Below, piece after piece: positions 8,371-52,316 of a DNA stretch of 64,000 nt (positions are counted from its first letter, which is position 1; each line of letters opens with the position of its first letter). The DNA comes from Escherichia coli (GTDB taxonomy: Bacteria > Pseudomonadota > Gammaproteobacteria > Enterobacterales > Enterobacteriaceae). The notes beneath the pieces are model-generated. The model saw only the letters and a list, made by a program, of their open reading frames with translations. It did no database searches and was not told where the DNA came from. The position numbers and the translations under genes were made by a program. The stretch lies in assembly GCF_029227855.1 (NCBI RefSeq), contig NZ_CP074356.1. One strand, given 5' to 3'.

Positions 8371-11917
<3,547 letters not shown>

Positions 11918-49618: not shown

Positions 49619-49905
49619 TTACCCTGAACTGACGATACAACAAAGGCGCAACGCTTTTGAGATAAAGGATCGATGCTTTCGCTGCTTTTACCCTCTACCA
49701 TTAGGCTAATTGCGACGAGAAAGGGACGACCTATGAATACTAACGTTTTTCGACTGCTCCTGCTGGGAAGCCTGTTCAGCCTTAGCGCCTGTGTGCAGCA
49801 AAGCGAAGTGCGACAGATGAAACACAGCGTCAGCACGCTGAACCAGGAGATGACGCAACTCATTGACATCCTCCACGCCCTGAAGGACGTGGATCCCTGC
49901 TACGT

Positions 49906-51114
49906 TCAGGCTGTCGCCTGAATCATTTCGGTGGGTTCCTGCTTCAACGGGCGGCCTGACTGCACCATCTCTCCACAGGCAAGAACGGCGTGCCCCGCCG
50001 CTAAAATGTTACGAGCGCCATTTACATCGGCGTTCGCTGTATATCCACATACCTGGCATCTGAATTGACTTTGTGACAGGCGATTTTCTTTCGCTGTATG
50101 ACCACAGCACGCGCAACGCTGACTTGTGTACGCTGGCGGAACAGCAAGCACCTGACCGCCACTCCAGAGCTGCTTGTACTCAAGCTGGCGGCGCATTTCA
50201 TACCAGCCCTGATCCAGTATCGAACGGTTTAAACCTGATTTTGCCCGGACATTGCGCCCCGGCTGGCTGACCGTACCCGCTGCTGACTTTGACATGTTAC
50301 TGACCTTCAAATCCTCAATGACTATCATTGCGTGGTTTTTGCTGACGGTCGTTGTGACTTTATGAAGGTAGTCCCTGCGGATATTTGCGATACAGGAATG
50401 CAGTCGCTGTATTTTGCGTTTCTGCTTCTGCCAGTTGTTGCTGAATTTGACCTTGCGGCTTAACTGTCGCTGAAGTCTCGCCAGCTTCTTCTGGTTTTTC
50501 TGAAAACTGTTTACAGGCTCAAAGACTGTGCCATCTGACAGCGTGGCGAGTTTAGCCACGCCAGCATCCAGCCCGACCATTGATGCTGAAGGGTGAACCG
50601 GAGTTGATACTTCACTTTCTGTCTGAATACTGATGTACCACTTACCGCAGGACTGGCAGACCGTGACATTTTTCACAACACCCGTGACCTGACGGCTATT
50701 CCGGTAGCGCATCCAGCCAAGTTTCGGCAGAAAAATACGGCTGTTTTCCTGATCGAGCTTAACGCCCTGCGGGTAGCGGAATGCATCATTCTGTCCCCGC
50801 TTTTTGAATCGGGGAAAAGCAGCCCGCTTCCGGAAGAAGTTTTTGTAAACCCGCTCAAGGTCTTTCAGTGACTGTTGCAATGGCTGTGAGGGCGAATCTT
50901 TAAGCCATTGCGTTTCAGTGGCGTTTTTCCACTCAACCAGCCAGGAAGCCATTTTCCCGTAAGGGATGTATTTATTACCGGCCTCATGATTCTCATTCTG
51001 AAGCGCCAGAGCACGATTGAAAACGAAACGACATGCGCCTGCGAAGCGCCTCATTTCACGCTCCTGTTGACCACCGGGTCTTAACTGGAATTTAAATGCC
51101 TGTAGTCGTTTCAC
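49906..51114 (-). CDS. tnpB: TnpB (OrfB) of IS605-family element; RuvC-like RNA-guided nuclease family
   Basis: 402-aa intact ORF, N-terminus [17 protein letters not shown]...; C-terminal zinc-finger CxxC...CxxC (CACCGH...CQVCGY); resembles K-12 IS609 InsQ as I recall it. Confidence 0.88.
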
Positions 51115-51121
51115 AGGCCAA

Positions 51122-51600
51122 ATGATACTTTGGTCTGTGAAAAAAGAAACCGATATCCGGCGTGGAAGGCATTGTGTTTTCCTGATGCATGTTCACCTGG
51201 TCTTTGTCCCAAATACCGACGCCAGATTTTTGACCATGACGCGACAGAAAAACCACGCACTTACTTTTCAGATGTATGTGCTGATTTTGAAGCTGAACTG
51301 GTTGAAATGGATGGCGAACCAGATCACGTCCATTTGTTAATTAACTATCCTCCCAAACTGGCGATATCCAGTCTGGTAAACAGCCTCAAAGGCGTATCGG
51401 GTAGGTGACTGCGACGAGATCGACCAGATATTGCAGTCAGGTATTACTACAAAGGCGTTTTGTGGAGTCCTGGCTATTTTGCCAGTAGCTGCGGAGGTGC
51501 GCCAATATCCGTCATCCGCCAATACATTGAACAACAGCAAACACCTGGTCAGGTGGAAAACCGCGCCTTATATCCCCGCCCTGAAGGACGGGGTTTTACG
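51122..51600 (+). pseudogene. tnpA: IS200/IS605-family Y1 transposase TnpA, frameshifted
   Basis: HVHLVFVP in one frame continues as KYRRQIF...DHVHLLINYPPK...LKG in the -1 frame (A-run at about 51211); C-terminal ...WSPGYFASSCGGAPISVIRQYIEQQ lies in a third frame. Confidence 0.75.
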
Positions 51601-52316
51601 GCGCACCGGATAAAGAAACAGTCAAAATCACTCAGCAAAACAGGCTGAATGCAAAATCCAGCAGTGGGGTTTACCTTCTGCCTGGAGCGAAAACACCAGC
51701 AAGACTGGAAAGCCAGATCGGTACTTTACGTATGTCGCTGGTGAATATTACGCCTGATACAGATGGCACCACCCTGACGCTACGTATTCAGGGCGAGTCG
51801 AATGATCCCTTGCCCGCATTCAGCGGAACTGTTGAATATGGGCAAATTCAGGGAACAATAGACAACTTTCAGGAAATCAATGTGCAGAATCAATTGATTA
51901 ACGCCCCTGCCAGCGTCCTCGCCCCCAGCGATGTTGATATTCCGTTACAGTTAAAGGGTATTTCTGTGGATCAGTTAGGCTTTGTACGTATCCACGACAT
52001 TCAACCTGTTATGCAGTAAACGTTTCGCGGGGCGTTTTGTGCGTCCCGCAACATCTTTCCCCGTCATTTTGTTACTCTGCTTACATCACCCAGATTGATA
52101 GTAAAAGTTTGCAACAAGGGTGAAAGTCAGTACAATCCCCGCCCGAATGTGTGTAAACGTGAACGCAATCGATTACGTAAATGATAGAACTGTGAAACGA
52201 AACATATTTTTGTGAGCAATGATTTTTATAATAGGCTCCTCTGTATACGAAATATTTAGAAACGCAATTTGCGCCTTTTTCACTCCCGCAAGGGATTTTC
52301 AAACAGTGGCATACAT

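Follow-up and report, generated by a model that had tools for sequence, protein, structure and literature searches.

Subterminal hairpins at both ends of an IS609 copy inserted in yajI of Escherichia coli, and a compensated base pair that distinguishes them

Two near-identical 20-nt imperfect palindromes lie in the window, i.e., the whole 64-kb stretch of E. coli DNA that was analysed. They are best explained as the subterminal hairpins of the left end (LE) and of the right end (RE) of one IS609 copy inserted in yajI, a reading to which we assign a probability of about 0.93. The boundaries of the element, its family, its working strand, the covariation of its ends and its copy number are directly established. 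End hairpins are a textbook property of a catalogued insertion sequence and in that sense already known; a literature search on IS609 returned surveys that list the element only, and no description of its ends was found there.

Limits, identity and genes of the insert

The flanks of the insert (49663..49862 and 51610..51809), when joined, match intact yajI of many E. coli genomes in one piece at 400 of 400 positions, and the insert therefore occupies exactly 49863..51609 (1,747 bp). The junction is unambiguous and a target duplication is absent. The limits proposed by the sequence-only reading, 49866..51608, were thus close, but the exact ends have to be moved to 49863 and 51609. The ends of the insert, which read TTGACATCC... 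and ...GCGCACCGG, are not inverted repeats. The locus is composed of the following features:

49733..49862, plus strand: yajI 5' fragment (RefSeq annotation of the identical locus L003)
49863..51609, minus strand: complete IS609 insertion, 1,747 bp (joined flanks equal intact yajI; 98-100% identity to RefSeq IS609-family copies)
49906..51114, minus strand: tnpB (insQ), intact, 402 aa, RNA-guided endonuclease (Pfam, NCBIfam and structure matches)
51122..51552, plus strand: tnpA pseudogene, Y1/HUH transposase (compared with the intact 143-aa tnpA of strain M7638, locus L007)
51610..52019, plus strand: yajI 3' fragment (RefSeq annotation of the identical locus and empty-site match)

In RefSeq, the transposase of copies that are 98-99% identical to the insert is named "IS200/IS605-like element IS609 family transposase". 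The copy located between ydcO and ydcL in K-12 shows 98.1% identity over 1,747 bp, and the RefSeq-named copies range from 98.1 to 99.1%. The element is the same as the one known in K-12 as insP/insQ; the window copy differs from it in the insertion site, yajI, which is common to some strains only, and in two private defects of tnpA (a 1-bp deletion and a lost stop codon). A Y1 transposase gene, the lack of terminal inverted repeats and of a target site duplication, subterminal palindromes in the same orientation and a target tetranucleotide at LE were all found, as expected of the IS200/IS605 family, and tnpB runs towards RE, as expected of the IS605 group. Judged by its sequence, the insert can therefore be assigned to IS609 of the IS200/IS605 family, IS605 group, with divergent tnpA and tnpB.

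The TnpB protein matches the Pfam families HTH_OrfB_IS605, OrfB_IS605 and Cas12f1-like_TNB, reaches 384 bits against the NCBIfam model guided_TnpB and aligns over its full length with the ISDra2 TnpB structures 8exa/8h1j (E 7e-54), which places it in the same family as ISDra2 TnpB. Its stop codon lies 13 nt before the RE hairpin. Three lesions break the tnpA gene: one base pair is deleted after 51208, a T>G change at 51407 turns a Leu codon into a stop, and the stop codon at 51550 is lost (T>C). Pfam Y1_Tnp matches are distributed over two frames (51130..51648). The intact allele of locus L007 scores 146 bits against NCBIfam transpos_IS200, for which the cut-off is 55. Since its tnpA is a pseudogene, the window copy, as read from its sequence, cannot make TnpA and is non-autonomous. 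It is not alone in this, as 10 of 11 further full-length copies retrieved from E. coli have a tnpA annotated as a pseudogene or incomplete. With the transposase gene defective in this copy and in most of those retrieved, it is doubtful that the DNA hairpins are currently selected for transposition.

The two hairpins and their working strand

The 20-mers CCACGCCCTGAAGGACGTGG (49873..49892) and CCCCGCCCTGAAGGACGGGG (51574..51593) are direct repeats on the same strand, spaced by 1,701 nt. The second was reported earlier at these very coordinates; the first was reported with the right sequence but one base off, at 49872..49891. When the 20-mer pattern was searched with up to three mismatches on both strands of the 64-kb window, only these two matches were obtained, compared with 0.02 expected by chance, and none of 100 shuffles reached two matches. 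As single-stranded DNA, each 20-mer folds into a hairpin of lower energy than its shuffles (z = -2.4 to -4.3). The minus-strand versions form eight contiguous pairs, including one T.G, closed by a TTCA loop (-5.8 and -6.5 kcal/mol), and the plus-strand versions form seven pairs and a bulge (-5.3 and -6.0 kcal/mol). The two differences between the sequences are at positions 3 and 18; these bases pair with each other in the predicted stem, as A-T in one hairpin and as C-G in the other. The claim that the A-to-C and T-to-G differences fall on opposite arms of the stem and keep its pairing is thus borne out.

It was considered whether the 20-mers might be dispersed palindromic repeats independent of the IS, of the REP/BIME type mobilised by RAYT proteins, that flank the insert by chance. 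REP elements occur in hundreds of dispersed intergenic copies per genome, and their hairpins are handled by Y1 (HUH) enzymes related to TnpA. This is the likeness to the REP/RAYT (TnpA-REP) system that speaks for the idea, together with a match of the intact IS609 TnpA to the NCBIfam model of REP-associated tyrosine transposases, which at 25 bits stays below the cut-off of 80. The copy number, however, is of another order. Besides there being only two copies in the window, a count over 5,426 complete E. coli genomes located the LE 60-mer at 11,267 places (median 2 per genome, maximum 13) and the RE 54-mer at 11,373 places (median 2, maximum 12), and the whole IS at 11,028 places (median 2, maximum 9). 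IS609 is present in 5,015 of the 5,426 genomes. The motifs thus track the copy number of the IS at about two places per genome, always at IS ends, and the spread of such a motif family outside IS ends, named beforehand as the observation that would speak against the IS-end interpretation, was not seen. Moreover, both motifs are inside the segment absent from empty yajI sites, and in other genera they keep fixed distances to tnpB and tnpA. The 20-mers are therefore not members of a REP-like family, which is ruled out by the copy number and the empty yajI site and to which we leave a practically negligible probability. A few solo ends were noticed on plasmids.

For the reading as end hairpins of IS609, the arrangement around the hairpins was compared with twelve other E. 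coli copies. Two of them share the yajI site, eight are spread over six further chromosomal sites and two are carried by plasmids. This gives nine distinct insertion sites when yajI is counted, seven chromosomal and two on plasmids. In minus-strand sense, all fetched copies read flank-TTAT, then CCGGTGCGCCGTAAAA and a hairpin, and at the other end GGGAT, a hairpin and AGGATGTCAA before the flank. In the window, the elements of this layout are located as follows:

49863..49872, minus strand: RE linker, 10 nt, AGGATGTCAA, nearly invariant in 24 relatives
49873..49892, minus strand: subterminal hairpin of RE, CCACGTCCTTCAGGGCGTGG on the top strand, with A-T at pair 3-18 (C-G in LE); supported by folding and covariation
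49893..49897, minus strand: GGGAT directly 5' of the foot of the RE hairpin, where IS608 has its right guide GAAT (alignment columns 1-5)
51574..51593, minus strand: subterminal hairpin of LE, CCCCGTCCTTCAGGGCGGGG on the top strand; a TTCA loop on an 8-bp stem that includes one T.G, hardly varying among 18 LE sequences of several genera
51594..51609, minus strand: LE linker, 16 nt, CCGGTGCGCCGTAAAA on the top strand (E. coli copies and LE alignment)
51610..51613, minus strand: tetranucleotide TTAT, the target or left cleavage site (TTTAT if extended by a base), in yajI and outside the IS (comparison of sites)

The RE linker ends in the right cleavage tetranucleotide TCAA (49863..49866), and the last four bases of the LE linker are AAAA (51594..51597), which corresponds in position to the left guide sequence of IS608. 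TTAT stands immediately 5' of LE at all seven independent E. coli chromosomal sites and both plasmid sites.

IS608 of Helicobacter pylori is the mechanistic model for the IS200/IS605 family. Its subterminal imperfect palindromes are likewise in direct orientation on one strand, and its insertion leaves no duplication. Both elements carry TCAA 10 nt 3' of the RE foot and a GAAT-like guide 5' of it, and both insert 3' of a TTAY matched by the bases that lie 5' of the LE foot. The guides of IS608 are AAAG for the left cleavage site TTAC and GAAT for the right cleavage site TCAA (PMC3201880; PMC5934647), GAAT being termed GR (PMC5934647), and the RE cleavage site TCAA was placed 10 nt 3' of the hairpin foot (PMC3201880). 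The window copy differs in combining TTAT with AAAA on the left, where IS608 has TTAC with AAAG, and TCAA with GGAT on the right, where IS608 has TCAA with GAAT. Its LE linker is 16 nt long as compared with 19 nt, and its tnpA and tnpB are divergent, unlike those of IS608. The hairpin sequences differ as well; the likeness is one of layout.

The TTAT/TCAA layout of IS608, the way in which tnpB runs, the strand of the Rfam matches and the superior pairing of the stem all lead us to read the minus strand of the window as the top (active) strand of the element, with RE at 49873 and LE at 51574. The same four lines of evidence, including stem pairing of 92.7% on the minus strand against 83.3% on the other (see below), rule out the plus strand, on which the sequence-only reading had written the motifs, as the functional one. 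Consequently, the labels of the ends had been reversed, and the hairpin called "left" is RE. The interpretation of the 20-mers as subterminal hairpins of an IS200/IS605 element is itself upheld by the family assignment, the empty site and the conserved layout of the ends.

Covariation of the ends among relatives

Relatives were collected by a TnpB-anchored scan with one genome per species, which yielded 44 loci with 39-94% TnpB identity, among them loci of Citrobacter, Erwinia, Pantoea, Serratia, Xenorhabdus, Morganella, Klebsiella, Photorhabdus, Janthinobacterium, Conchiformibius, Methylococcaceae and a zetaproteobacterium. Nearly all loci that include the region downstream of tnpB carry GG(A/G)AT, a hairpin and AGGATGTCAA in this order, most of them with GGAAT at the RE foot in place of GGGAT, and the end hairpins of other genera lie at fixed distances from tnpB and tnpA. 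In the RE alignment of 24 in-register sequences (A1), 92.7% of the stem cells are standard pairs and double-sided changes occur at six of the eight pairs. None of 500 shuffles reached the observed covariation on four of five measures, and one of 500 did so on the fifth. Slid registers pair far worse (39-59%). The reverse-complement alignment is also inferior, with 83.3% of cells paired against 92.7% for the top strand, because the many T.G wobbles, which are at pairs 3-18 and 6-15, turn into mismatches of C.A there; this gives independent support for the minus strand. The RE compensatory and wobble changes are well paired only on the tnpB-sense strand. At the level of the family, these data support, at RE, the proposal that selection acts on structure and not on sequence.

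The history of pair 3-18 is more varied. Its states in the 24 RE sequences are T.G (7), A-T (6), C-G (6), T-A (1) and unpaired (4; T.T, A.C and C.T). In a neighbour-joining tree built from tnpB and its 3' region with the hairpin masked, the A-T state is found in E. coli copies, a 93%-identical plasmid copy and Citrobacter, i.e., the IS609 clade, and the outgroups have C-G or T.G; the exception within the clade is Escherichia sp. L013, with C-G and a 1-nt deletion. As A-T is common to the clade, the double change is old and shared and not private to the window copy. The C.T state in Escherichia sp. L034 is a possible one-step intermediate. T.T was found in E. coli copies at three sites (yfeD, yedK and next to a DUF1869 gene), two of which have a further A.G mismatch; the tree resolves the 98-99%-identical E. 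coli copies, including these three, poorly. E. whittamii has A.C at this pair, and in the M7638 copy, the only one fetched with an intact tnpA, the adjacent pair 4-17 is mismatched (C.T on the top strand). Compensation at pair 3-18 thus holds for the IS609 clade and is not universal. Since some copies carry T.T or A.C and others single mismatches, either there is no strict need for pairing here or it is being lost in copies that are mostly without TnpA.

The same observations bear on the question of whether the paired differences might have arisen by chance, as two independent neutral substitutions in a decaying element. The element is indeed non-autonomous, and other copies carry uncompensated changes in the same stem. 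By our own estimate, however, two random differences between the 20-mers fall on one of the eight stem pairs in 8/190 of cases (4%), or about 1.4% if a Watson-Crick pair is also restored, so that a coincidence of roughly 1-4% would be needed. It would also have to be reconciled with the A-T state shared throughout the IS609 clade, Citrobacter and the plasmid copy included, and with five other stem pairs that are compensated in relatives. We therefore regard chance as highly unlikely.

In the sequences sampled, the left end behaves differently from the freely covarying right end, which was mildly unexpected. The LE alignment (A3) comprises 18 sequences from several genera, collected with the anchors CGTAAA[AG] and ATATAAGG; the Morganella locus L018 and a Photorhabdus/Klebsiella subgroup with CTCCCGCC-GACATCA-GGCGGGAG were left out, and the sample is thus biased towards left ends like that of the window, which overstates the invariance of LE to some degree. 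In this anchor-biased sample the LE hairpin is almost invariant, being identical in E. coli, Erwinia, Pantoea and Janthinobacterium at TnpB identities down to 50%, and no covariation was seen within the LE hairpin among the 18 anchor-selected sequences. For LE, a conserved structure is therefore suggested by analogy and by the predicted folding energy. At LE, the last base of the target tetranucleotide and the base adjoining the hairpin foot vary together: T occurs with A in 13 elements and C with G in three, with one exception (L013). AAAG accompanies TTAC in two elements (L014 and L020) and AAAC in L032.

This guide/target covariation is also relevant to the notion that the hairpins are intrinsic terminators of the divergent tnpB and tnpA, their likeness to each other being incidental. 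Each hairpin lies just downstream of a gene end, and the LE hairpin is followed by TTTTAC on the plus strand, as a terminator might be. A terminator scan, however, reports neither of them; the LE tail has only four T, and the RE hairpin is followed by AGGATGTCAA, which is without a T run. Furthermore, invariant flanking motifs, a TTAT target and covariation between guide and target would be meaningless for a terminator. On the scan and the 4-T tail of LE we reject intrinsic terminators, for which a very small probability is retained.

The RE hairpin, a predicted TnpB guide RNA and the proposed mechanism

Two further features, both of them predicted, lie at and beside RE:

49847..49862, minus strand: flank as a putative 16-nt guide, TGAGTTGCGTCATCTC (sequence; role taken from the TnpB literature)
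49863..50042, minus strand: putative scaffold of an omega RNA (guide RNA) that overlaps RE and the 3' end of tnpB, with the RE hairpin as its last stem (fold of 18 relatives, sub-threshold Rfam matches)

The 180 nt that end at the RE tip, aligned on the tnpB-sense strand in 18 relatives, give a multi-stem consensus with 41 pairs, 19 of which are compensated; part of this region is coding, which confounds the conservation. No Rfam family reaches its gathering score on the minus strand. Weak matches were obtained to HgcC (E 0.045), RAGATH-18 (E 0.08) and sot0042 (E 0.17), with 21 bits against a gathering score of 50 for HgcC and 17 against 88 for sot0042. HgcC and sot0042 both align to CCACGUCCUUCAGGGCGUGGAGGAUGUCA on the minus strand and cover exactly the hairpin plus AGGAUGUCA. 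An 8-bp "RE-like tetraloop" with UUCA was described by Gomes-Filho et al. (2015) in transcripts that overlap tnpB 3' ends, and an E. coli K-12 example of such a sense-overlapping transcript was reported (PMC4615843). The archaeal sotRNA/HgcC motif and the RE hairpin share the 8-bp stem, the UUCA loop and the location near the 3' end of a tnpB-overlapping transcript; the difference is that the matches are far below the gathering scores, and only the terminal hairpin and tail align convincingly.

TnpB uses RE-derived RNAs as guides and cuts the empty donor site next to a TAM, which is TTTAT for ISGst2 (bioRxiv 10.1101/2023.03.14.532601). The TTTAT that flanks the window copy is identical to this TAM, and TGAGTTGCGTCATCTC directly follows TTTAT in the empty yajI site. 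The predicted structured region across the 3' end of tnpB and RE would be a further likeness to the ISGst2 and ISDra2 systems. The RE hairpin is probably also the last stem of a TnpB guide (omega) RNA, and by the precedent of other TnpB systems TGAGTTGCGTCATCTC is predicted to act as the guide.

This raises the possibility that the RE hairpin owes its maintenance chiefly to a role as RNA, as the terminal stem of the omega RNA, and not to one as a DNA hairpin bound by TnpA, in which case its compensation would reflect selection at the RNA level. Several data are in line with this: tnpB is intact, in contrast to tnpA, which is defective here and in most of the copies retrieved, the multi-stem fold upstream of the RE tip is conserved with 19 of 41 pairs compensated, wobbles of the G.U type are frequent on the tnpB-sense strand only, and the weak HgcC/sot0042 matches and the K-12 sense-overlapping transcript point to the same 8-bp UUCA motif (PMC4615843). 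However, an RNA role cannot explain the LE hairpin, which is outside any omega RNA and yet is the more conserved of the two, and T.G wobbles are tolerated in DNA hairpins too. A predominantly RNA-level origin is a serious but doubtful alternative, and because the two roles are not mutually exclusive, it complements the reading as end hairpins more than it replaces it. It might tentatively be proposed that the two ends are under different regimes, LE being frozen in sequence by an additional sequence-specific constraint and the RE stem being shaped jointly by TnpA, acting on DNA, and by the TnpB guide RNA.

The mechanism proposed for the window copy follows that of IS608, and we infer TnpA binding, the cleavage chemistry and the omega-RNA role from the literature. 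The IS609 copy inserted in yajI 3' of TTAT on the window minus strand. By analogy with IS608, a TnpA dimer would bind both hairpins when the minus strand is single-stranded, and the bases just 5' of the hairpin feet would recognise the cleavage tetranucleotides by pairing, AAAA at LE with TTAT of the flank and GGAT at RE with TCAA of the RE tip. The strand would then be cut, and the element excised as a circle and pasted beside another TTAT without duplication. TnpA is assumed to read the shape of the hairpin more than its sequence, so that stem pairs may drift by compensatory change, and A-T in RE as opposed to C-G in LE would be one such change, common to the IS609 clade. The RE hairpin would probably be transcribed too, as the last stem of the TnpB guide RNA.

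What the analysis fixes are the exact limits and the orientation of an IS609 copy that inactivates yajI, which matters little beyond correct annotation. It adds that IS609 follows the IS608 rules, with TTAT as the target, TCAA at the right tip and guides beside both hairpin feet, and that the window copy keeps an intact gene for an RNA-guided nuclease and no transposase. The family-level covariation table may be of help in the annotation of IS200/IS605 ends and in the design of IS609/TnpB tools.

Constancy and change in the end hairpins

The left-end (LE) hairpin of IS609, CCCCGTCCTTCAGGGCGGGG, has the same sequence in E. coli, Erwinia, Pantoea and Janthinobacterium (alignment A3, 18 LE sequences; L015, L023, L043 and others), in a sample skewed by the anchors used in searching, and it stays unchanged although TnpB identity falls to 50%. 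Unlike it, the right-end (RE) hairpin differs among relatives, with compensatory changes. Several E. coli copies carry mismatches in the RE stem, as listed here.

L002:1501-1535 (yfeD), E. coli copy: RE hairpin with T.T mismatch
L005:401-435 (DUF1869), E. coli copy: RE hairpin with T.T mismatch
L006:401-435 (yedK), E. coli copy: RE hairpin with T.T mismatch

The T.T falls at the pair for which the window shows compensation; an additional A.G mismatch is present in two of the three hairpins. Because these copies occupy three distinct chromosomal sites, it is suggested that ends with mismatches may still have transposed, or that the mutation may have arisen in parallel.

A subgroup with divergent ends and an LE hairpin split by an insertion were also encountered among the relatives.

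L025-L031, L039, L040, L042, L051: subgroup of about 62% TnpB identity in Photorhabdus, Klebsiella pneumoniae and Pantoea
L019:81-1540: IS609-like element in Klebsiella indica whose LE hairpin is divided by an insertion of about 1.4 kb

The subgroup has an unrelated LE hairpin, CTCCCGCC-GACATCA-GGCGGGAG, with TTAT, TTAC or TAAC as the LE flank; its RE hairpin is longer (34 nt, CCCCCTCTTGAGTCACGAAGTGCGAAAGTGGGGG), and GGGAT ... AGGATGTCAA is retained. The Klebsiella indica insertion, which may be IS4-like, contains a transposase-like ORF of 442 aa. Its terminal inverted repeats are TAATGCC.GATCAGTTAAGG, and a 14-bp duplication of CATCCTTCAGGGCG borders it on both sides.

Defective tnpA and intact tnpB

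Window 51122..51552, plus strand: tnpA with three defects, taking as reference the allele of strain M7638, which is intact

Compared with that allele, the transposase gene in the window shows a 1-bp deletion after 51208, a Leu-to-stop change at 51407 and loss of the stop codon at 51550. Eleven further full-length copies were retrieved from E. coli. In these, tnpA is intact in M7638 only; it is annotated as a pseudogene or incomplete in the remaining ten, several of which share the internal stop. All of these full-length copies have an intact endonuclease gene, tnpB. In four derivatives (L010 and L011 from two E. coli plasmids, L014 from Citrobacter and L012 from E. coli hslO-yhgE) tnpA is absent or truncated, LE lies directly upstream of tnpB, and both hairpins are kept.

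Predicted guide-RNA scaffold and the split yajI

A4 columns 33-37 with 209-213, window about 50019..50023 with 49865..49869, minus strand: predicted long-range pairing

The predicted pairing joins GAUGU within tnpB to AUGUC at the RE tip, and is nearly invariant in the 18 relatives of A4 (alignment of the predicted TnpB guide-RNA scaffold), hence without covariation support. Such a contact might close the scaffold in the manner of a pseudoknot.

Window 49733..49862 and 51610..52019: interrupted yajI

In the empty-site search, the joined yajI flanks were at least 80% covered in one place in 5,080 of 5,424 records, and 344 extra places were reported; a split yajI, whether caused by IS609 or otherwise, may therefore be present in about 6% of complete E. 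coli genomes.
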